Assembly: GCA_903860135.1 (NCBI GenBank)
Contig: CAIOPG010000011.1
Span: 320 to 64,319, forward strand
Direction of reading: 5' to 3'
From: Candidatus Omnitrophota bacterium
GTDB taxonomy: Bacteria > Omnitrophota > Gorgyraeia > Zapsychrales > Fredricksoniimonadaceae
Length of the DNA: 64,000 nucleotides
The notes below the pieces were generated by a model. That model did not search any database. It was not told the origin of the DNA and saw nothing but the letters and a program-made list of their open reading frames with translations. Positions 36,108 to 53,662 of this stretch are shown here, piece by piece. Both the position numbers and the translations under genes were made by a program. The first letter of the stretch is position 1. Each line of letters starts with the position of its first letter.

Positions 36108-36136
36108 TTGTCAACGGCGTAAATGCGGATAATAAT
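36108..36136 (+). promoter_or_regulatory. Candidate promoter for the helicase gene (-35 TTGTCA, 17 nt, -10 ATAAT-like) with a small dyad gccgtt/aacggc
   Basis: ttgtcaacggcgtaaatgcggataataatt directly upstream of the ATG at ~36163 and its aaggg SD. Confidence 0.3.
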
Positions 36137-36162
36137 TGACGCCCCAAAAAACAAGGGCTAGA

Positions 36163-38331
36163 ATGACGGCACTTATGCATTTTGAAGACCTTCTTGTCCG
36201 ACACAATTTCCCTCCGGCTTACCGGCAAGCCCTGCTGGCCGGAGGCATCACCATGCTCCATCCGCCCCAGGCCGATGCCATCCACGCCGGGGTGCTTAAC
36301 GGCACCAATGTCATCCTGGCTGTGCCCACGGCCTCGGGGAAAACGCTGATCGCGGAACTCGCGATACTGAAAGCCATCTTTGAAAAAGGCGGCCGATGCC
36401 TGTATATCGCCCCTCTTAAAGCCCTGGCCAGCGAAAAATACCGCGACTTCAAAAAAAAATACGAACCGCTCGGGATCAAGGTCGGCATCGCCATCGGCGA
36501 TCTTGATTCACCCTCGGCTTATCTGAAAGATTACCAGATCATCATCGCCACCGCCGAAAAGATGGACTCGCTCCTGCGCGCGCGTTCCCCCTGGCTTTCC
36601 AACGGGATCGCCGTCACGGTATTCGATGAGGTCCATGTCATCAATGATGCCAGCCGCGGGCCGACCCTCGAAATTCTTATTACACGCATCCGGCTGATGA
36701 ACCCGGAAATGCAGGTGCTGGCGCTGTCGGCCACCGTCGCCAATGCCCGGGAAATGGCTGACTGGCTGAACGCGAAAGCCGTGATCAGCTCCTGGCGGCC
36801 CATCCCCCTCCATGAAGGTATTTATTACAACAAGCGCCTGACCTATGAAAGCGGGCGCATCAAGATCCTCCATGAAGACGCACCCGATGAAACACAACAG
36901 CTGGTCATGGACACCTTGCGCGGCCAGGGGCAGGTGCTGGTCTTTGTCAATGCCCGGCGTTCCACGCAGTCTGTCGCCCGTGAGCTGTGCCGCTGGGTCG
37001 GGCCTTTGCTCACGCCCGAAGAAAAAGACATCCTGAAAACAGTTGCCAGCGACATCGCACCGGAAACATCCGCCACCAAAGTCTGTAAAAAACTGGCCGA
37101 AGTTGTCGTCCACGGGGTGGCCTTCCACCACGCAGGGCTCAAGCCGGACCAGCGCGAAGCCATTGAGGAAAATTTCAAAAAAAACATCATCAAGGTCATT
37201 TGCTGTACACCAACGCTGGCCGCCGGCGTCAACCTCCCGGCTCGCCGCGCCATTATCCGTGATACCAAGCGCTATGTTTCCGGCGCCGGCTCTGTCTTCA
37301 TCGCGGCATCGGAATACAAGCAGTGCGCCGGCCGCGCAGGCCGCCCGCAATACGATGAATACGGTGAAGCTGTCCTGATCGCCAAATCGCTTTCGGAACA
37401 GGATGCCCTGTTTGACCGCTTTATTCTGGCGCCGCCCGAACCGGTCATCTCCAAACTTTCCGACGAAGCCCAGTTGAGGCGTCACGTTCTGGCCTCGGTG
37501 GCCGGCGGGTATGTCCATGATGTCAACGGCATGTTTGAATTCCTTGAACACACCTTCCTCGCCCATCAGCATAAAGGCGCGAACCTGATCGAACTTGTGG
37601 GCGGCATCTTTGATTTTCTGCACCGGGAACAATTCATCGACAAAAGCGGTTTTAGGTTCTTCCCGACGCCCTTTGGCGCCCGGGTCAGCCGCCTGTACAT
37701 CGACCCTGTTTCGGCTTTAGTGTTAAAGAAAGGCCTGGCCCGCATTGCCGCCGGAACCAATTTCTCGTCGATCGGCATCTTGCACCTTATCTGCTCGTGC
37801 CCGGACAGCGAACGCCTGTCCGTCGGCAAGAAAGGCCTGGAAGAACTTGAAGATTTCGGTAACAAGGTGGCCGATGAGCTGGTCATGACCCGTGAAGATA
37901 TCCAGTCCCTGCAGGATTATTACACATCGCTTGGCGTGCTTAAAACCGTCTGGATGCTGTTACGCTGGATGGATGAAGAAAAAGAAGAAGCTGTTTGCGA
38001 GCGCTTCGACATCGGGCCAGGCGACATTTTCCGCCACACCGAATCCGCCCAATGGCTCGTCTACGCCGCGCAATCGATCGCTGAAGTTTATCAGTTCAAG
38101 AAACTGACCCATTTTCTGGAAGGCTTAAAGAACCGCGTGCGCTACGGCATCAAGGCAGAACTGCTCGAACTCGCCGGGCTCAAAGGTATCGGCCGCATCC
38201 GCGCCCGCGTCCTTTTCGACCACGGCTACCAGACCCGCGCCGATTTCAAGAACGCCACCGAAACCGACCTCGCCCCCATCAAAACCATCGGCCCGGCGCT
38301 GGCGAAGGATATTTTGCGGCAGGTGGGATGA
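36163..38331 (+). CDS. Hel308/Ski2-type superfamily 2 DNA helicase (DEVH box, C-terminal HhH)
   Basis: Walker [15 protein letters not shown] ([10 protein letters not shown]), motif [15 protein letters not shown]-terminal [13 protein letters not shown] HhH. The track start 36136 is an alternative (TTG). The ATG at 36163 has an SD. Confidence 0.8.
38116..38155 (+). repeat. Left copy of an imperfect direct repeat (attL-like) inside the helicase 3' coding region
   Basis: ctggaag(gcttaaag)aaccgcgtgcgCtacggcatcaagg matches 48190-48221 except for an 8-nt indel and 1 mismatch. Confidence 0.7.
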
Positions 38332-39275: not shown

Positions 39276-40445
39276 TCACCGATTTCCTTTTGCACGATTA
39301 TGCGACTTGCATAACATCTGACAATTCTTGATATTTGTCCCACCACCCTTGCTCCATGCGGCGACATGGTCAGCGTCCATTTCAGCCAACTTCCAAGACT
39401 TGCTCTTGTTAGCATCATGCCCAAGGGCACAAAGGGGACAGTTTGACGCACCTTTTGCTTCAGCTTTTTTAGTCTGTGATTCAAAAATGGATCTCTTTGT
39501 TGCATCATCAAAAACTCGAACATCCAGCAATTTCGTATCCGTCGAACCGCCAAGGATGTACTCAAAAACACCTTTTCGATTTTTGACATAAGGATCACTG
39601 TGTAACTTTTTTACCTCGTCTGATACCTTGGCTGGACTATACGCCGTTGCGTGATACTCTTCATACAATCGTCCCCACTCAAGCCCGCGCATCTCGCTTG
39701 CAACATCGATAAAGACACTGGAAACCCATTCGATCACGCTGTTGAAATACCTTTTAAGTTCGTTGATATCTGTGTCACGGCGATGCCGACACATATAATC
39801 GCCAATATTACCCTTACTAACCCAATCCAGCGCACATTCCAGAAATTCCTGCCGATTGGCACTACCAGAAATATACGAGCTCCATTTTTGGATATTGGCA
39901 TTTTGACTATTACTAAATTCTTCCTTACCAAGTGTAACAAATGACCCTGAATACACGGCGTTGAGTCGTTCTTGAGCATTGAGTGGGACGCCGACAATAT
40001 TAATTGTTTCGAACCACTCTTTTATCTCACTTTCCGTCCCTTCACATTCATAAATAAGCAGCTTTGTTTCCAATAGCCTATCTTTCTTATCTTTTGCCAT
40101 ACCACTAAAATACTGTGGCATACCGCTTTCATCTGTAATGGCAAATTTCCCCGTCACAAATCGTCCAAGACTGGTAATGCGCTGTTGCCCGTCTAAGACT
40201 TCCAGTTTACTATCGTTGACTTTATTGAAATAAATCAATCCTATAGGGTACCCCTTGAGGACTGATGCGATGACAGCCATTTCTTTCCTGCCGCCGTCAG
40301 AAACATAAATGTAGTTACGCTGATACTCTGGTTGGATAGTCAATTTACCAGATAAGCCGAATAGACCCTTGCCTTCAAGTTCGTTATAAACAAAACCTTC
40401 GCAAATATCTCTAACAGTAATACTCGTCTTAAGCGTTGCTTCCAT
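39276..40445 (-). CDS. DUF262 (ParB-like/GmrSD N-terminal) - HNH nuclease fusion protein
   Basis: N-terminal DGQQRITSL motif (DUF262 DGQQR). C-terminal CPLC...[35 protein letters not shown] motif. ATG overlaps the methyltransferase stop by 17 nt. Confidence 0.75.
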
Positions 40446-41634
40446 AATTCTTCCTATGTCTTATAAGTACTCTTTGATAAACTTTCTCCATTAATCCGTT
40501 TTGAATAATCACCCCACTCGCATTCAAATCATATGTTCCCTTTTTCCCAAATTTATCTAGATATGCCGTCTTGCATTCTACAGTTGAATATTTTTTACTT
40601 TTTAAATTATAAAGATCTTCATTCTCACACATACCCAGTATCTCAAATTGATCAGGATTATACTTGTCCAGAAAACTAATCGGCACTCCCATTACGCCGT
40701 CATAATCACTCGGGATAGAATCGGTAAACGATACTTCTATAGCATCATAATTATCGTATTTATCATACTTTCTTTTGCCGTTGATTTCTTTATGTTTACT
40801 GTGTTTTAGATTTTCCTTCATTGTCATTAGCGGTAGCGGTTTATGACGCCGCCCGTGGTCGAGATTAGTGAACCAACAAACACCCGGAACACGATTTACT
40901 TTTACGCCATTTCGTTCTCGTTCAAATTTATACGTATCATTATAAACAAAATCACTAGAAACTTGGAAATACATGCCTGTGTTAAAATTCGTTGCACCAA
41001 GCCACAATTTATTTTCCTTAATTTCTGGGAAAACATCTTTGTAAGTAATCGCATTCATATTGCCAATAATGACGAACTTCTTATTGTACTCAAAAAGTTG
41101 TTTAACATACTGCCGAAACAGGCTGAATGGTGGATTTGTTACGACAATATCTGATTGTTTAAGCAAATTTATACATTCATCACAGCGAAAGTCGCCATCA
41201 CCTTTTAGCGGCGTCCATTCGTTGTTTTTGTTTGCCTTTAACTGCCTGGCAACATCCTTCAAGTTAAACTCGCCATCACCATCGATGTCGTGCGCCTCGT
41301 TAATAATAAACTTGTTGGCGGTTACCTTGGGACGACCTTTTGATTTTGTGAAAGTTTCGTCACCAAACAATTCCAGCTGTGTATTAGCCACGGGCGAGGG
41401 TTTGTAGCTGGTGGTGATAAGCTGTTTTAGCCCAAGCTTATTAAAATTTAGCACGAAATAACGAAAAAAATTGCTTTCGAACGGATCATCACAATTGCAA
41501 TACACTACCTTGTCGCGAAATGTATCGGGGTCGTACTCCAAATACGCTTCCATCTCCTTCTGAATATCGCCGTACTGAGTATAAAACTCGTCATTCTTGG
41601 CCCTTTTCGCACTTGTAAGATTATCGTTTGCCAT
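40429..41634 (-). CDS. EcoRI-family N6-adenine DNA methyltransferase
   Basis: N-terminal [18 protein letters not shown]...VVYCNCDDP resembles the M.EcoRI N-terminus. NPPF catalytic motif ([10 protein letters not shown]). Confidence 0.7.
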
Positions 41635-41774: not shown

Positions 41775-43136
41775 CTACGTCGGAAGAATATAACTAAATC
41801 CATCTTTCCCCAGCCGCGCGGTCAACTTGTCGATGATGGCCTGTGGATCATCCTCTGGCCCTGCCATAAATAACGGCTTGCCGTCGGGGCCGCCGAATTT
41901 AAACACGCGTTCCTTGCAGTCTTCGTCTTTCTCACCCAGCACATGCCGCGCCACCTCAAAATCAGGGTGCGGATCAAATCCCAGATTTTGCGCGTACGCC
42001 ACCGCCTGGTTCACCAGCCGCTGGGCACATCCGATGCAGAAATCATCCATAACCCCTGGATAATGCATCACCATGACGTCGATCTGTTTCCGGGTAAGTC
42101 CCGCTCCATAAGACGCTTGCTTGACGCCAAGACATTGCAAATCAATCAAATACACGCCAAAAATATAATGCGACGCACCCATCGCCCTTATCACCATAAC
42201 AGTCGCAAAAGCCCGCTCTTCCCAATCCTCATTAACAAGCACGTACCGCAACGGGTATTTTTCTGAAGCCTTGACTGCCTCCTTTATTTCCTGTTCTGTC
42301 AGATCCAGAGGAACCGGCGTCCGGACAGCGTCATCTTTGGCCATGCAACATTTCTTATATTTCTTGCCGCTACCACAATAGCAGGGCTCATTCCGGCCGA
42401 TCTTGGTTTTTGGTTCAGGCACTTCATCGTGATCGCCAGGACGCAGGCTTCTGCGCGGATATGTTCGCTTGGCTTTTACACCCAAAGCGATTTCCACATC
42501 CTCCAGATCACCCTGCACAGAGCAATCAACCTTGTCATACGCGAATGCTTCACGTATACAGTCGAGCGATTCCAGTGCGTTCAATCCTGTCAATCCATCG
42601 ATCAGGAATGCATTCAATGTCGAATCATTGATGAAAAAATACTTTAATTCATCTGTCAGGATCGTTACACAGCGATCTCTGACAGAACCACCTTCCTTAC
42701 CAATCAGACAAAGACTGCTCTCCGCCGCTACCCGCGCGAATAACCCGTTCCGGCGATCTTTCAAATACAAGGACAGACCCTCGATGGCACCAGCCCCGAT
42801 CATGGCCATAACCTCCGGCAATTCCTCGCCCACCCAATCGTCATCCTCCTCGTCGATCCGCCGCAATAAAGACAGCAATGCCCCGACAGCGTCAACGGCT
42901 TTCAGCTGTCCCAGCGCCCGCCACCCGTGCACCGATGCCCAGATAGTCAACGTATCACGCCCGCCTGAATGCAGGCGTTCATCCTCGATCATCCTGATCA
43001 GTTCAGGAACATGCTGTTCCCCCAGCCCCAGGCTTAAATAATCCGGCCATTCATCACCCAATTCACATTCCCCATAAACAAGTAATTGATCTACCGGACT
43101 GGCATACGCCGTATCAGCTGTCTCTTCACGCATCAA
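41775..43136 (-). CDS. SEC-C motif (zinc-binding) domain protein, 453 aa, function unknown
   Basis: Central EPCYCGSGKKYKKCC SEC-C motif. AGGGGG SD before the ATG. Confidence 0.55.
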   Translation of the reverse strand: MMREETADTAYASPVDQLLVYGECELGDEWPDYLSLGLGEQHVPELIRMIEDERLHSGGRDTLTIWASVHGWRALGQLKAVDAVGALLSLLRRIDEEDDDWVGEELPEVMAMIGAGAIEGLSLYLKDRRNGLFARVAAESSLCLIGKEGGSVRDRCVTILTDELKYFFINDSTLNAFLIDGLTGLNALESLDCIREAFAYDKVDCSVQGDLEDVEIALGVKAKRTYPRRSLRPGDHDEVPEPKTKIGRNEPCYCGSGKKYKKCCMAKDDAVRTPVPLDLTEQEIKEAVKASEKYPLRYVLVNEDWEERAFATVMVIRAMGASHYIFGVYLIDLQCLGVKQASYGAGLTRKQIDVMVMHYPGVMDDFCIGCAQRLVNQAVAYAQNLGFDPHPDFEVARHVLGEKDEDCKERVFKFGGPDGKPLFMAGPEDDPQAIIDKLTARLGKDGFSYILPT

Positions 43137-43411: not shown

Positions 43412-43645
43412 TCATTCTTTCCCCGCCCACGCGCCTTTAATGTAGTACGGCTTGCCATTGACCATCAACACCCATTGCCCCTTGTCACCGGCGACTTTAA
43501 CAATATTGCCGGCGTGTTTTTCCTGGGCAAAGATGGGATTTGAAATAATGGTAGATACTGCGAGATTGATGATGATTGCCAGTATCAGGAGGGATTTTGA
43601 CATAATGGCCTCTTTCTTAATATAGCCTTGTTTTCTCAAAATCAT
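43412..43645 (-). CDS. Small secreted hypothetical protein (77 aa)
   Basis: Signal-peptide-like MSKSLLILAIIINLAVSTIISNPIFA, then a short beta-rich mature part. Could be spurious. Confidence 0.3.
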   Translation of the reverse strand: MILRKQGYIKKEAIMSKSLLILAIIINLAVSTIISNPIFAQEKHAGNIVKVAGDKGQWVLMVNGKPYYIKGAWAGKE

Positions 43646-43776: not shown

Positions 43777-44652
43777 TCAACCCAATTCAAGTCGATCAAA
43801 GCGTTCAATCAGGATTTTATCAAAGTTTTTAGCGAGATCATGAGGAAGCCGGGATGCCTTGATCTTTTTGCGGAAATTTTCTTTCTGCCCGATAAAACGC
43901 GCCAAGCGTACTTTCTCAGGAACGCCTAGATTGTCAGCCAAAAGGTCGATCTCTTTTCTTCGGATATTGCTCTTGCGACCCTGGATGGTCAATGCTGACT
44001 CATCAGCCTCGTTCGGTAAAACAATCCTGGAACACACCAGATCATACGCAGGAGCAAGTCGGACATGACCTTCCTCGTCGTAAATGACCGAGTAATTCTT
44101 CATGTGCGCATCGCCGTTGGCAACAAGAAAGTTATAAACAATACGCTCAAAAAAAAGCTGTGTATCCAGCCCCGGGACTTCGGAAACAGCTTTCAATTTC
44201 CGCCCGATCTCCTCGACCGAACCGTCATATTTATTTTCTTTCCCAAGGATCTGCGCAAAATCTTCCTGATGGATCTTACGGCGTCCTTCCCGGTCAAAAC
44301 GCTTAACCACATACGCCAGACTCTTATCCTTCAAAGGCACCAGGCAATGCACAGGCACATCAATCCCAATATCTCCGGCAATATTCATGCAGAGTTCTTC
44401 ATTCTCCGGCAAATTCGCGAATGCTTGCACTTGCGGCTTCAAAATATACTGACCTCCCTCGCCAGCAACTTCAAGGCGAGGCTCACTATCTTTATCCGCA
44501 AGCCGGACTGAAAGCTTGGGCTGAACGCCGGAAATAGACATCTTCCCGACCATCTCCTGGGCTTTCAGAGAAACCCCGGCTAGCGTCAGATCAATGAACG
44601 GCTCACGATCGACACCAAAAACTTCTCGCCATATTGATCGCTCATGCTTCAT
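43777..44652 (-). CDS. hipT: HipT-like HipA-family Ser/Thr kinase toxin (kinase core only, lacking the HipA N-domain)
   Basis: SGVQPKLS, VKRFDR and LVANGDAHMKNYS (HipA catalytic GDxHxKN) motifs. 291 aa. Confidence 0.75.
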   Translation of the reverse strand: MKHERSIWREVFGVDREPFIDLTLAGVSLKAQEMVGKMSISGVQPKLSVRLADKDSEPRLEVAGEGGQYILKPQVQAFANLPENEELCMNIAGDIGIDVPVHCLVPLKDKSLAYVVKRFDREGRRKIHQEDFAQILGKENKYDGSVEEIGRKLKAVSEVPGLDTQLFFERIVYNFLVANGDAHMKNYSVIYDEEGHVRLAPAYDLVCSRIVLPNEADESALTIQGRKSNIRRKEIDLLADNLGVPEKVRLARFIGQKENFRKKIKASRLPHDLAKNFDKILIERFDRLELG

Positions 44653-44981
44653 ACAGCCCCGCTTTCTTTCACGGTAACAGCACCGATCGTATTCTTCCCT
44701 GTCACCAATAATATTCCGAATTCATCAGCCGGATCGATCTTCCTTGTCGCACAGACGATATCCCGATACCAACCCTCAGCGTTCATTCCCGCAAAGAAAG
44801 AAAATAATACCGCCGACTCAAAAGGCTCTGCCTGCAACGGCAAAGACAAAGAGACCGGTTTACCCGTCTTTAAATAATCAGCCCCATATACAAACCTGTA
44901 CCCGTCACCTGTTTCTTCCAGGATACCGGCCAGCTGATCATGAAGGAACACATCTGCTTTACGCTTCCTAACCCTTATCAT
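44649..44981 (-). CDS. hipS: HipS-like protein (stand-alone HipA N-terminal domain)
   Basis: VFLHDQLAGILEE...YRFVYGADYL resembles the HipA N-terminal domain. Likely start Met at 44981 (track start 45065 overlaps hipB). 4-nt overlap with hipT. Confidence 0.6.
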   Translation of the reverse strand: MIRVRKRKADVFLHDQLAGILEETGDGYRFVYGADYLKTGKPVSLSLPLQAEPFESAVLFSFFAGMNAEGWYRDIVCATRKIDPADEFGILLVTGKNTIGAVTVKESGAV

Positions 44982-45171
44982 TGCGCATAACCTCAAGATG
45001 ATGCCCCAAAAAATCCAGAACCTGATTGACCTTATCCAGGCGCACCGTAGCCTTGCCCTGCTCAAGCTCTCTCAGAAAACGAAGACCAACACCAGCACGC
45101 CGTGCAAACTCAACCTGGTCAAGGCCAGCCTTCTTCCGAAGTCCCTGTATTATTTTTCCGATGTCTTTCAT
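44968..45171 (-). CDS. hipB: HipB-like XRE-family HTH antitoxin of the tripartite system
   Basis: MKDIGKIIQGLRKKAGLDQVEFARRAGVGLRFLRELEQGK HTH. ATG at 45171 preferred over the TTG at 45276 because two operator-like dyads lie just upstream. Confidence 0.6.
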   Translation of the reverse strand: MKDIGKIIQGLRKKAGLDQVEFARRAGVGLRFLRELEQGKATVRLDKVNQVLDFLGHHLEVMRNDKG

Positions 45172-45180
45172 GATTAAAAT

Positions 45181-45272
45181 ATACACCCTGAAGGGTATAA
45201 AAGCAAGGCGCGTTGTTCGAGATATGGAGAATTTGGAAGATAAAAATGATTTATATACCCTTTCGGGTGTAT
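45181..45272 (-). promoter_or_regulatory. Two operator-like imperfect dyads upstream of hipBST: ATACACCC-tgaa-GGGTATA (45181-45199) and ATACCC-tttc-GGGTGTAT (45255-45272)
   Basis: Both share the half-site ATAC(A)CCC, spaced ~75 bp apart, 10-100 nt upstream of the hipB-like ATG. Confidence 0.45.
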
Positions 45273-45307
45273 TCAACTATTGTTTAAAGACAATATTTTC
45301 TGCCCTC

Positions 45308-45595
45308 TCACGTCGGGCGGAATATCTTTAATTTAATATCAGGGATCATTCGGAAATGTTTTTCATTGCCGGAAACAAGCAGAAGGTCATTCTCTGCCGC
45401 CGTTGCGGCGATGATGGCGTCCCCCGCCGTTAACCCATGCGACAACGCATATTGCTCCATATAAATCATGGCTCTGTGACCAATATTTTCAGTAATAGAA
45501 AGAACTGAAAAATGATACACGCTCAAGAACGACTTGCAAGAAGCCAATTGTTGTATGAACGTGTGGAGCGAGGTGGCGGCTATGTGACTATACAT
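45308..45595 (-). pseudogene. Remnant of a PIN-domain (VapC-like) toxin gene. Only the C-terminal part is present
   Basis: C-terminal PIN-like LTAGDAIIAATAAENDLLLVSGNEKHF. No N-terminal catalytic Asp region and no cognate antitoxin. Confidence 0.45.
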
Positions 45596-45627: not shown

Positions 45628-45680
45628 ACAACACATATTTATTCATGTGTTGTTGACATTAACTATATTCATGGTATCCT
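45628..45680 (+). promoter_or_regulatory. hipBA promoter/operator: 9-bp perfect dyad ACAACACAT-N8-ATGTGTTGT (45628-45653) overlapping -35 TTGACA (45653-45658). 16-nt spacer. Extended -10 TGgTATCCT (45672-45680)
   Basis: Read directly. Lies ~170 nt upstream of the hipB ATG with an AAGGAG SD. Confidence 0.5.
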
Positions 45681-45849: not shown

Positions 45850-46170
45850 ATGGATTTTTTATTTGCAGGCGACAGGGATATCCTTAAAGAATTAGGATCC
45901 CGTGTCCGTCGTGCACGACTTGAAATGAACATATCCCAGTTAAAGTTTGCTTTGCAAGCCGGCGTTGCCATTGGCGTTGTTCAGAACTTTGAAGCCGGGA
46001 AGGCCTGCTCCCTCAAAAGTTTTATCCGAATGCTCAGGGTCACGCACAACCTGGCCAATCTTGCCTTACTGGTCCCTGAACCACTTCCAAGCCCTATTGA
46101 AGTAGCAAAAATGTCCGGAAAACAGCGACGTCGCGCCGGAGCTGCCAAAATAAATAAGGATAATCTATGA
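45850..46170 (+). CDS. hipB: HipB antitoxin (XRE-family HTH)
   Basis: ATG at 45850 preceded by AAGGAG. HTH LEMNISQLKFALQAGVAIGVVQNFEAGK. 4-nt overlap with hipA. Confidence 0.7.
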   Translation: MDFLFAGDRDILKELGSRVRRARLEMNISQLKFALQAGVAIGVVQNFEAGKACSLKSFIRMLRVTHNLANLALLVPEPLPSPIEVAKMSGKQRRRAGAAKINKDNL

Positions 46171-47498
46171 GCCCGGCAAATAAAGCCATTGATCAGGCCA
46201 ATGTATTTCTTTGGGGGGCACCAGTCGGGACGGTCATATGGGACAAAAACAGGGACCTTGGCATTTTTCAGTATGACAAGTCATTCGTAAGCAAAGGACT
46301 GCAGATCTCCCCGCTCTTGATGCCGCTTAGTGTTGATACGAAGTATTCGTTCCCGGCATTGGACAGGGTAACCTATTATGGCCTTCCGCCACTCCTGGCC
46401 GATGCGCTACCTGACAGATTTGGCAACGCTCTTATTGATATTTGGCTTCGGGATCAAGGAAGAGAGTTAAATTCTTTTTCTCCCGTTGAGCGACTTTGTT
46501 ATATGGGACAGCGCGCTATGGGCGCACTTGAATTCCGCCCGGCTACGGCACGGGTCTTGGATGAATCTATTAAGATCTCCATTGATGAAATGAGCGCACT
46601 TGCTCAAAAAATTCTTACTAAAAAGGCGCAACTGTCGGTGAATAGAAACAAGGACAGCGCCATGGCCATCCGATCCATTATTGAAATCGGCACCTCGGCC
46701 GGCGGCAACAGGGCAAAAGCTGTCATCGCCTGGAATAAAGAGACTGGGGAAATCCGTTCTGGTCAAGCAGATGCCTCAACAGATTTTGAACATTGGATCA
46801 TTAAATTCGATAATGCCAGTGAAAAGATATTGGGTGATCCGCATGATTATGGGCGCGTGGAACACGCTTACTACAATATGGCCATTGCGGCCGGGATTAA
46901 TATGAGCCCCTGTCATTTGTGGGAAGAAAACGACCAAGCGCATTTTATGACGCGCAGATTCGACAGGGGGAAAAGTGGCCAGCGACTCCACATGCAGTCC
47001 CTCTGTGCCTTGGCAGGGTATGACTTCAATCAGATCGGCAAATATCATTACGAAGAAGTTTTTGGAATCATTCAGAAGTTGCGACTTTGGCATCAAGCAA
47101 TCCAGGAGCAATACCGTCGCATGGTGTTTAATGTGATGGCACGGTGCCAAGATGATCATACAAAGAATATATCATTCCTGATGACCCCGGAAGGGAAGTG
47201 GGATCTATCCCCTGCTTATGATAACGCCTGGTCGTATAGTCCCAGGGGGCTTTGGACTGGTCAGCATCAAATGCGGGTCAATGGCAAGCGAGATGAGTTT
47301 ACCGTGCAGGATTTGATAGAAGCTGGGAAATCTTATGAGATTAGTAAAGCGAAGAATATGTGTGAACAAGTTGGCGATGCCGTAGCCCGTTGGTCAACAT
47401 TTTCCAGGCAATCAGGTGTTTCCAAGGAAATGACTCACCGCATTGCAAAAACACACAGGAAAGAACTGTTTATAAAAAGAAAATCTGGTTTAAAATAA
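46167..47498 (+). CDS. hipA: HipA Ser/Thr kinase toxin (full length)
   Basis: 443 aa. HipA N-domain plus kinase core (GAQLKF-like region, DDHTKNISF catalytic loop). Confidence 0.85.
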   Translation: MSPANKAIDQANVFLWGAPVGTVIWDKNRDLGIFQYDKSFVSKGLQISPLLMPLSVDTKYSFPALDRVTYYGLPPLLADALPDRFGNALIDIWLRDQGRELNSFSPVERLCYMGQRAMGALEFRPATARVLDESIKISIDEMSALAQKILTKKAQLSVNRNKDSAMAIRSIIEIGTSAGGNRAKAVIAWNKETGEIRSGQADASTDFEHWIIKFDNASEKILGDPHDYGRVEHAYYNMAIAAGINMSPCHLWEENDQAHFMTRRFDRGKSGQRLHMQSLCALAGYDFNQIGKYHYEEVFGIIQKLRLWHQAIQEQYRRMVFNVMARCQDDHTKNISFLMTPEGKWDLSPAYDNAWSYSPRGLWTGQHQMRVNGKRDEFTVQDLIEAGKSYEISKAKNMCEQVGDAVARWSTFSRQSGVSKEMTHRIAKTHRKELFIKRKSGLK

Positions 47499-52264: not shown

Positions 52265-53662
52265 TTACTTCTTCTTCAACGCCACAAGGCCAAGATCCTG
52301 CAGTTGGCCGGCATCTACCGACGACGGCGCATCGGCCAGCGGGCACCAGCCGCGCTGGGTCTTGGGGAAAGCGATGGTGTCGCGGATCGAATCAAGGCCG
52401 GTCAACAACGCCACCAGGCGGTCAAGGCCATAGGCAACACCCGCATGCGGCGGAGCCCCATATTCAAACGCACGCAACAAAAACCCGAATCGAGAATTGA
52501 TCTCTTCTTCGCCGAGACCAATGATGTCGAAGATCCTCTTTTGAATATCACGGCGATGGATACGCACCGAGCCAGAACCGATCTCACTGCCGTTTAATAC
52601 CAGGTCATAAGAACGAGACCGTACTTTGGAAAGATCCTGCCCGTCAAGGAGCGCCACATCATCCGGATGCACCGACGTGAAGGGATGATGCTCGCTTTCC
52701 CAGCGGTTCTCGCCGGGATTATGCTTAAATAAAGGAAAATCCACGACCCACAAGAAGGCAAACTCATTCTTGTCCGTCTTGTCCTTACGGACGTCCGGCT
52801 TGTCGCACCCATACTGCGCCATGGCCTCGGCATGCGTCATGCGCGGGAACGGGATCGGCAGATCAATGCCCTTAACTTCCTTCAGGATCTTCTGGAACAT
52901 GCGTTCCGTGAGGCTGTACACATCTTCCTCATCAACAAACGACATCTCCATATCGATCTGGGTGAACTCCGGCTGTCTGTCTGAACGAAGATCCTCGTCG
53001 CGGAAACATTTGACAATCTGATAATAACGATCCATGCCCGACACCATCAACAGCTGTTTGAAAAGCTGTGGCGACTGGGGCAGGGCGTAAAACTGACCAA
53101 AATTAAGGCGTGACGGCACCAGAAAATCGCGCGCGCCTTCGGGCGTGGATTTCGTCAGGACCGGCGTCTCTACTTCAATAAAATTCTCGTTATTCAGGAA
53201 TGTCCTGACCGTGGCGGCCAGTTTATGACGGGTCAATAGCGCCGCACGCATCTGATCACGACGGATATCAAGGTAACGGTATGTCAGGCGGATCTCCTCG
53301 GTGACATTGGCGTCGCCGGCGATCTCAAACACAGGCACCTTGCTCTCGTTGAGGATCTCAAGCTCTTTGGCAAGGAGTTCAACTCCGCCGGTGGCCATAT
53401 CAGGATTGATATTCTTGTCGGGGCGGACGCTCACGGAACCACGGATACGCACCACAAACTCAGGCCCGAGCTTCTGCGCATTCAGATGCGCTTCTTTCGC
53501 CACCGAAGGCACAAACACGACCTGGGTGATGCCATAACGGTCACGGATATCAATAAAAATAAGTTTGCCGTGATCCCGGCGGCAATGTACCCATCCGGTC
53601 AAAACCACGTCCTGATCTTTGTGTGTAGGTCTTAATTCTCCGCATGTGTGTGTCCGCAGCAT
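52265..53662 (-). CDS. aspS: Aspartate-tRNA ligase, short bacterial-type form without the GAD insertion domain
   Basis: Class II motifs (FRDEDLR, GAPPHAGVAYGLDR). GCDKPDVR is followed directly by FLWVVDFPLF, with no ~100-aa GAD insert. Confidence 0.85.
   Translation of the reverse strand: MLRTHTCGELRPTHKDQDVVLTGWVHCRRDHGKLIFIDIRDRYGITQVVFVPSVAKEAHLNAQKLGPEFVVRIRGSVSVRPDKNINPDMATGGVELLAKELEILNESKVPVFEIAGDANVTEEIRLTYRYLDIRRDQMRAALLTRHKLAATVRTFLNNENFIEVETPVLTKSTPEGARDFLVPSRLNFGQFYALPQSPQLFKQLLMVSGMDRYYQIVKCFRDEDLRSDRQPEFTQIDMEMSFVDEEDVYSLTERMFQKILKEVKGIDLPIPFPRMTHAEAMAQYGCDKPDVRKDKTDKNEFAFLWVVDFPLFKHNPGENRWESEHHPFTSVHPDDVALLDGQDLSKVRSRSYDLVLNGSEIGSGSVRIHRRDIQKRIFDIIGLGEEEINSRFGFLLRAFEYGAPPHAGVAYGLDRLVALLTGLDSIRDTIAFPKTQRGWCPLADAPSSVDAGQLQDLGLVALKKK

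Follow-up and report, generated by a model that had tools for sequence, protein, structure and literature searches.

The 64,000-nt stretch of DNA analysed here (hereafter the window; contig CAIOPG010000011.1 of assembly GCA_903860135.1, positions 320 to 64,319) contains a locus that is very probably an intact tripartite HipBST type II toxin-antitoxin (TA) cassette in the chromosome of an Omnitrophota bacterium. This reading draws on gene structure, homology, protein fold, residue conservation, purifying selection, and the conservation and positioning of two operator dyads. The window is chromosomal, as it encodes DnaE, GuaA, AspS, HisS and RecO, and the host is assigned to Omnitrophota because the best named matches of its DnaE (89, 78 and 71% identity) all belong to Candidatus Omnitrophota. 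HipBST was first defined in Escherichia coli O127 (PMC6581861), and two characterised systems serve as our references: that of enteropathogenic E. coli O127:H6 (PDB 7AB3-7AB5; PMC6581861, PMC10627512), with the proteins HipS(Ec) and HipT(Ec), and that of Legionella pneumophila, Lpg2368-2370 (PDB 7VKB/7VKC and 8EZR-8EZT; PMC9325769, PMC10653801), with the proteins HipB(Lp), HipS(Lp) and HipT(Lp).

Three co-directional open reading frames (ORFs) follow one another on the minus strand in the order hipB-hipS-hipT (Table 1), each at the position given for it in a preliminary description of this DNA. The hipS ATG lies at 44981 and the hipB stop at 44968, which makes an overlap of 14 nt and not of 4 nt as first described, and a GAGG Shine-Dalgarno sequence is situated inside hipB, 9 nt upstream of this ATG; the 4-nt overlap is correct for hipS and hipT, where the hipT start lies within the hipS stop (ATGA). 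In the comparison with relatives the conserved block is bounded by the distal dyad on one side and by the stop codon of hipT on the other, so that the cassette extends from about 45271 to 43777, or about 1.5 kb, close to the range of 43777-45276 originally proposed. The Pfam profiles Couple_hipA and HipA_C match separate ORFs and no ORF of the cassette carries both; a single polypeptide combining the two, which characterises canonical HipBA, was found neither here nor in about 50 relatives. For each of the three proteins the best match among solved structures is the corresponding HipBST component, and the HipBST-like architecture recognised in the preliminary description is thus borne out.

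The kinase-core protein HipT has HipA_C (E-value 9.9e-49) as its sole Pfam domain. Among solved structures it matches HipT(Lp) at 1.5e-45 (159 bits), HipT of E. coli O127 at 2e-20 (77 bits) and E. coli HipA at 1.3e-7 (35 bits). An AlphaFold2 model built with 42 homologues reached a mean predicted local distance difference test score (pLDDT) of 87, and Foldseek aligned it to HipT(Lp) (7VKC) with a template modelling (TM) score of 0.87, to HipT(Ec) (7AB4) with about 0.8 and to HipA with about 0.68. By score as well as by fold the protein is closer to HipT proteins than to HipA. HipT has been described as kinase clade III, found exclusively in hipBST operons and ranging from 291 to 346 aa (PMC8262856), and our protein stands at the lower edge of this range. 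The kinases HipJ and HipI are set apart by their described gene order, because in hipJS and hipIN operons the partner gene lies downstream of the kinase, unlike the upstream hipS (PMC8262856). The alignment shows a Gly-rich loop G36-K-M-S39-I-S41-G-V-Q-P-K46, a catalytic motif D181-A-H-M-K-N186 and a Mg-binding D204 (PAYD), aligned with those of HipT(Lp) and HipT(Ec); the residues invariant in the 42 homologues include S39, G42, Q44, K46, D181, H183, N186 and D204. In PADLOC, HipT gives weak matches to the candidate defence family PDC-M03A (6.9e-10), which are insufficient for calling a defence system.

The middle ORF had been taken for a stand-alone HipA N-terminal domain, and the profile search agrees: Couple_hipA is matched at 8.4e-24 over residues 9-104 as the sole Pfam domain, and the best solved-structure matches of HipS are HI_0666 (3.9e-19), HipS(Lp) (1.4e-14) and HipS of E. 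coli O127 (1.6e-13). An EGW motif aligns on APEGW of the latter, which corresponds to Glu63 and Trp65 of HipS(Ec). In HipS(Ec), Trp65 inserts as a wedge next to the ejected Gly-rich loop, and the antitoxin cannot function without it (PMC10627512). HipB, with its 67 aa, is scarcely more than a helix-turn-helix (HTH) domain. It matches HTH_31/HTH_3 in Pfam (1.8e-7) and TIGR03070, couple_hipB, in NCBIfam (4e-22; 77.9 bits against a curated cutoff of 71.65), and its best match in the PDB is HipB(Lp) (8ezt, 1.5e-8), the sole Hip protein among its matches.

Scanning one genome per species yielded 80 loci. According to tblastn, hipB, hipS and hipT occur in the same order in about 50 of them, in different metagenome-assembled genomes (MAGs) and at 43-81% HipT identity. 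The junctions between hipS and hipT differ (-4 nt in 21 loci, and -8, +2, +5, +20 nt and others elsewhere, with true gaps of +2 to +25 nt), and because they vary among the ~50 loci, the split is old and does not depend on any one indel. An assembly at the European Nucleotide Archive (a 75-kb scaffold) and an independent Logan assembly both contain this exact HipT sequence, together with identical gene calls of 67, 110 and 291 aa. The functional motifs are kept throughout: SIS occurs in 47 of the 48 readable HipT loops among relatives, EGW in the HipS of 51 out of 52 loci, which is every relative with a readable motif, and D-x-H-x-[KR]-N in 49/52 loci, the exceptions being one full-length and two truncated HipT. 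Against 17 close relatives, the ratio of nonsynonymous to synonymous differences per site (pN/pS) is 0.13 for hipB, 0.21 for hipS and 0.20 for hipT, at pS values of 0.64-0.74. These values indicate a long divergence under strong constraint, that is, purifying selection on all three genes; amino-acid identity is 74-87%, with synonymous sites near saturation.

The family is large, with 4226 metagenomic matches at E<=1e-10. The closest hipBST loci are mostly found in Omnitrophota MAGs, and others in Firestonebacteria, Auribacterota, Thermodesulfobacteriota and Aminicenantes. The genes that neighbour the cassette in the window (hipBA, PIN and SEC-C genes) are absent beside hipBST elsewhere, and no flanking gene family is common to more than 6 of 55 loci. 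Because neighbours and flanks are not shared among loci, hipBST fits a self-contained mobile cassette. One MAG possesses two distinct hipT loci with an upstream hipS, L040 (CAYPYT010000167.1) and L052 (CAYPYT010000016.1); hipB was detected at L040 and none was found at L052. The two loci lie on different contigs, and the module can thus probably be multi-copy within a genome. HipT identity amounts to 79% versus 59% for DnaE; the 420-kb MAG contig was not among the DnaE matches, so these values are not tied to one contig, and we make no claim of horizontal transfer from them.

Upstream of hipB lie two dyads, the distal TACACCCGAAAGGGTATA and the proximal TATACCCTTCAGGGTGTA (minus-strand reading), which share the 18-bp consensus TAYACCC-N4-GGGTRTA; the two copies make up a 22-nt inverted pair. 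Their starts lie 100 nt and 28 nt upstream of the hipB ATG. Both dyads had been correctly noticed, and their distance, given as 75 bp, is 72 bp from start to start with a gap of 54 bp. The pattern TAYACCCNNNNGGGTRTA, with at most one mismatch, has exactly two matches in the window, both upstream of hipB; shuffled sequences give a chance expectation of 0.03, and two or more matches occurred in 0 of 100 shuffles. In all of 19 close relatives, dyads are positioned at -28 and at -98 to -100 from the hipB ATG, and the proximal one is near-invariant (TATACCCtttaGGGTGTA). The only conserved columns in the upstream alignment of the close relatives are the two dyads, a TTG just 5' of the proximal dyad and a TATATT that overlaps its 3' end, while the DNA flanking the dyads is unconserved among the 19. 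The proximal dyad, which ends 10 nt before the hipB ATG, hence occupies the spacer between a candidate -35 and a -10 element (Table 1). Because this -10 ends only 6 nt before the ATG, the hipB mRNA is predicted to be probably leaderless or nearly so.

The same dyad is found in arrays of two to five copies upstream of hipB in relatives at 50-60% identity (loci L020-L055), mostly at spacings of 31 and 41-42 bp and in some cases of 52, 62 or 72 bp. Over all loci the spacings cluster at 31, 41-42, 52, 62 and 71-72 bp, each an integral number of helical turns. The dyad is about 100-fold enriched upstream of hipB, with 138 copies per 14.8 kb versus 23 per 252 kb in the rest of the loci. In Legionella, HipB binds three 18-nt inverted repeats with 53-bp gaps in electrophoretic mobility shift assays, and the proximal operator O1, 24 nt upstream of hipB, overlaps with the promoter (PMC10653801). 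We recovered sites of the Legionella type, TTACYG-N6-CAGTAA, in L. lytica (L084) and in a second locus of the Legionella type (L085) at -42, -113 and -184/-185, with a period of 71-72 bp. The suggestion that the dyads are plausible autoregulatory operators therefore gains from the phylogenetic footprint and from a geometry that matches the validated Legionella HipBST operators, although they stand here as predicted operators. Operators alike in size, period and position but unlike in sequence and number are what co-evolution of HipB with its operator would be expected to produce. No third operator follows at the next period upstream (~45326-45343): the stretch falls in a PIN remnant, and all close relatives have two sites at most. 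A scan for terminators found none after hipT, and the 'terminator' called at 45199-45182 is the proximal dyad itself.

These features suggest how the cassette may work. Free HipT, a HipA-family Ser/Thr kinase core, would be the toxin and would phosphorylate an essential translation factor, which would arrest growth; by analogy with TrpS, the target of E. coli HipT, this factor would most likely be an aminoacyl-tRNA synthetase. HipS, the detached N-subdomain-1, is the predicted antitoxin and would inhibit HipT, and the double serine of the SIS motif in the Gly-rich loop may provide two autophosphorylation sites that tune this inhibition, since the two loop serines of HipT(Ec) are alternative autophosphorylation sites (PMC10627512). 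HipB presumably dimerises, bridges two HipS-HipT pairs and binds both 18-bp dyads. On the proximal dyad, in the -35/-10 spacer, it would exclude RNA polymerase and so cause autorepression, and the distal dyad, 72 bp or 7 helical turns away, would present the same face of the DNA and allow cooperative or looped binding. Translation of hipS and hipT would be coupled through the overlaps of 14 and 4 nt.

Several points weigh against this reading or parts of it. The closest characterised kinase, HipT(Lp), has only ~43% identity. Neither TrpS nor GltX is a target of HipT(Lp), and its P-loop serine plays no part in its regulation (PMC10653801); because of this neither the target nor the role of SIS is simply transferable from HipT(Ec) by analogy. 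HipS(Lp) functions without the Trp, so that this residue may be dispensable here as well. For HipS, an AlphaFold model from the single sequence reached a pLDDT of only 43 and could not be used. The operon promoter was missed by a generic sigma-70 scan, because the candidate -35 matches the generic element at only three of six positions; promoter rules in Omnitrophota may differ from the consensus.

The cassette could be mistaken for an ordinary bicistronic hipBA whose hipA was broken in two, either by a frameshift error in sequencing or assembly or by a recent mutation that made it a pseudogene, a concern already raised in the preliminary description. HipS and HipT (110 + 291 aa) together do resemble a HipA, and a 4-nt ATGA junction could arise from a single indel. 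However, the same split is seen in two independent assemblies and in ~50 loci with variable junctions, both halves are under purifying selection (pN/pS among the three genes 0.13-0.21), HipT agrees much more closely with the structures of split HipT than with fused HipA, and a genuine fused HipA only 1.5 kb away is quite different. The assemblies, the loci and the pN/pS values rule out a sequencing-error split, and we give a frameshift or decay origin practically no credit. A different objection concerns the roles within the operon: neutralisation might in truth fall to HipB, as in HipBA, with HipS serving only as a structural accessory for completing the kinase fold. HipB is indeed homologous to HipBA antitoxins (TIGR03070), and the part of HipA to which HipS is homologous is non-inhibitory there. 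Yet the antitoxin role belongs to HipS and not to HipB in the two HipBST systems that have been characterised (PMC8262856, PMC10653801), the EGW wedge motif of the inhibitory HipS(Ec) is kept in 51 of 52 loci, and HipB is hardly larger than its HTH domain. We regard a HipB antitoxin as very improbable.

A more serious contender is a domesticated, non-toxic phospho-signalling module under HipB control that has kept the HipBST architecture. Conservation is unusually strong for a TA system, given 74-87% identity at near-saturated synonymous sites, the module is very common in one phylum, and a Legionella homologue with a non-canonical target is conserved across its genus. On the other hand, the unshared flanks and a conservation that breaks off exactly at the distal operator on one side and the hipT stop on the other are the signature of a mobile cassette; the proteins have kept all the residues for catalysis, autophosphorylation and the antitoxin wedge that are typical of toxic HipT/HipS pairs, and the locus is situated amid other TA and restriction-modification genes. 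We consider domestication unlikely and prefer the reading of an intact HipBST TA cassette.

Mobile-type genes form a small islet in which the cassette is situated, namely a methyltransferase/endonuclease pair, a SEC-C protein, a truncated PIN gene and a divergent hipBA (Table 1).

Table 1. Features of the HipBST cassette and of its surroundings in the window (coordinates refer to the window)
Feature	Position	Strand	Description	Evidence
hipB	45171-44968	-	67 aa HTH (Xre/Cro-type) protein	ORF; HTH_31/HTH_3, TIGR03070
hipS	44981-44649	-	110 aa, stand-alone HipA N-subdomain-1	ORF; Couple_hipA
hipT	44652-43777	-	291 aa HipA_C kinase core without N-subdomain-1	ORF; HipA_C
Distal operator dyad O2	45254..45271		TACACCC-GAAA-GGGTATA (minus-strand reading), predicted	Motif scan
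Proximal operator dyad O1	45182..45199		TATACCC-TTCA-GGGTGTA (minus-strand reading), predicted	Motif scan
Candidate promoter	45178..45206	-	-35 TTGCTT (45206-45201), 17-nt spacer, -10 TATATT (45183-45178)	
Canonical-type hipBA	45850-47498	+	HTH gene (106 aa) and, with a 4-nt overlap, HipA (443 aa; Couple_hipA + HipA_C fused)	
PIN-type ORF	45308-45595	-	95 aa; matches only the C-terminal PIN half	Profile positions 64-114 of 120
Type II restriction-modification pair	39276-41634	-	EcoRI-like adenine methyltransferase overlapping GmrSD_N + HNH endonuclease	7.8e-130 (methyltransferase)
SEC-C-motif protein	41775-43136		453 aa; follows the restriction-modification pair	
Helicase	36136-38331	+	731 aa	DEAD/Helicase_C, archaeal helicase domain 4, C-terminal HHH_5
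Aspartate-tRNA ligase	52265-53662	-	465 aa	590-aa bacterial AspS profile, matched in two stretches
ORF downstream of hipT	43412-43645	-	77 aa, signal-peptide-like N-terminus	Called in both public assemblies

The hipBA module is divergent and ~680 bp from hipBST; its fused HipA has no close solved relative, its best match in the PDB being HipT(Lp) at 4.7e-8. Upstream of this hipBA (45628-45680), a 26-nt palindrome, ACAACACAT-N8-ATGTGTTGT, abuts a TTGACA/TATCCT promoter-like site and may be the operator of hipBA. The PIN-type ORF has no vapB-like partner beside it and is probably the remnant of a VapC. In PADLOC, the GmrSD_N + HNH endonuclease matches REase_II (9e-81). The 77-aa ORF directly downstream of hipT has no Pfam match and is not conserved 3' of hipT in relatives, and neither Rfam nor tRNA scans gave any match in the window. 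Further away, the helicase shows a Hel308-like architecture in a bacterial genome and matches HamB-type models in PADLOC, and the aspartate-tRNA ligase, matched to the longer AspS profile in two separate stretches, probably lacks the usual insertion domain.

The arrangement had been called noteworthy outside Proteobacteria. The host is indeed non-proteobacterial, but non-proteobacterial HipBST is not new in itself and the family has been described before: systems of the HipBST(Lp) type are reported as widespread in the Fibrobacteres-Chlorobi-Bacteroidetes (FCB) superphylum (PMC10653801), and a HipS from Lentisphaerae is shown in Fig. S4B of PMC8262856. Omnitrophota do not appear in the searchable supplements of the 2021 and 2023 HipBST surveys, and in the literature searched we found no paper linking HipBST to this phylum. 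The novelty is modest and consists of a large, strongly conserved Omnitrophota-centred clade with mosaic features, phased operator arrays and a probable leaderless promoter. The clade widens the range of HipBST to include Omnitrophota and candidate phyla close to them, and the ~50 naturally varied promoter and operator arrays could be used to study how HipB reads phased operators. As a natural intermediate between the two characterised systems, the clade could also help to settle whether the double-serine loop and the HipS Trp are ancestral. The understanding of how such systems work is unchanged by our findings.

It is conceivable, though on balance doubtful, that this clade represents a distinct third HipBST subtype, which would combine a Legionella-like backbone and operator geometry with the SIS loop and the Trp wedge of the E. 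coli type. Under this joint proposal, SIS and the HipS Trp would be ancestral and lost in Legionella, the promoter would be leaderless and embedded in an operator array of two to five sites phased at 31, 42 and 72 bp, and the cellular target may be other than TrpS. If this were true, the strong conservation of the module and its abundance in this phylum, whose members are ultra-small and possibly host-dependent, would argue for a role in physiology or defence that is specific to the lineage.

Of the systems known so far, that of Legionella comes closest to the cassette in all three proteins, with 43% identity for HipT, 41% for HipS and 41% for HipB (compared with the retrieved loci L084 and L085). 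HipT is closer to that of L. pneumophila than to that of E. coli O127 (159 versus 77 bits), and HipS scores similarly to both. The Legionella system shares the hipB-hipS-hipT order, the overlapping genes and the short HipB (75 aa, versus 67 aa here), and likewise the 18-bp operators with a 71-72 bp period (72 bp in the window), the proximal one overlapping the promoter, in our case as predicted sites. It differs in the operators themselves, which read TTACYG-N6-CAGTAA instead of TAYACCC-N4-GGGTRTA and number three instead of two, and in the distance of the proximal site, which ends 24 nt before the ATG in Legionella and 10 nt before it here, where a leaderless mRNA is predicted. The loop of Legionella HipT reads SVQ in contrast to SIS, its HipS has Ile/Met (E-G-I-M) where ours has Trp (EGW), our HipT is 21 aa shorter, and the Dot/Icm context of Legionella has no counterpart in the Omnitrophota host. 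A single P-loop serine (SVQ/SIQ) and the lack of a Trp65 equivalent characterise the HipBST(Lp) subclade, and neither is found here. The clade is thus, judged from its motifs, a relative of the Legionella group and not a typical member, because SIS and EGW are E. coli-type features.

HipBST of E. coli O127 has the same tripartite architecture and the same catalytic and Mg-binding motifs, and its S57-I-S59 loop aligns with S39-I-S41, as do Glu63 and Trp65 of its HipS with EGW. Its HipT is nevertheless more distant (2e-20, ~24% identity in the structural alignment) and larger, with 335 aa including a larger N-terminal mini-domain and insertions, and its target is TrpS. Canonical HipBA, as known from E. 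coli K-12 and Shewanella oneidensis, resembles the cassette in the kinase fold, the catalytic motifs, the HTH partner and an autoregulation via multiple palindromic operators, which we predict here. It differs in that N-subdomain-1 is fused in HipA and encoded by a separate gene in our cassette, in a HipA match of only 1e-7 with a TM score of ~0.68, and in its published operator motifs, which are unlike those of HipBST.

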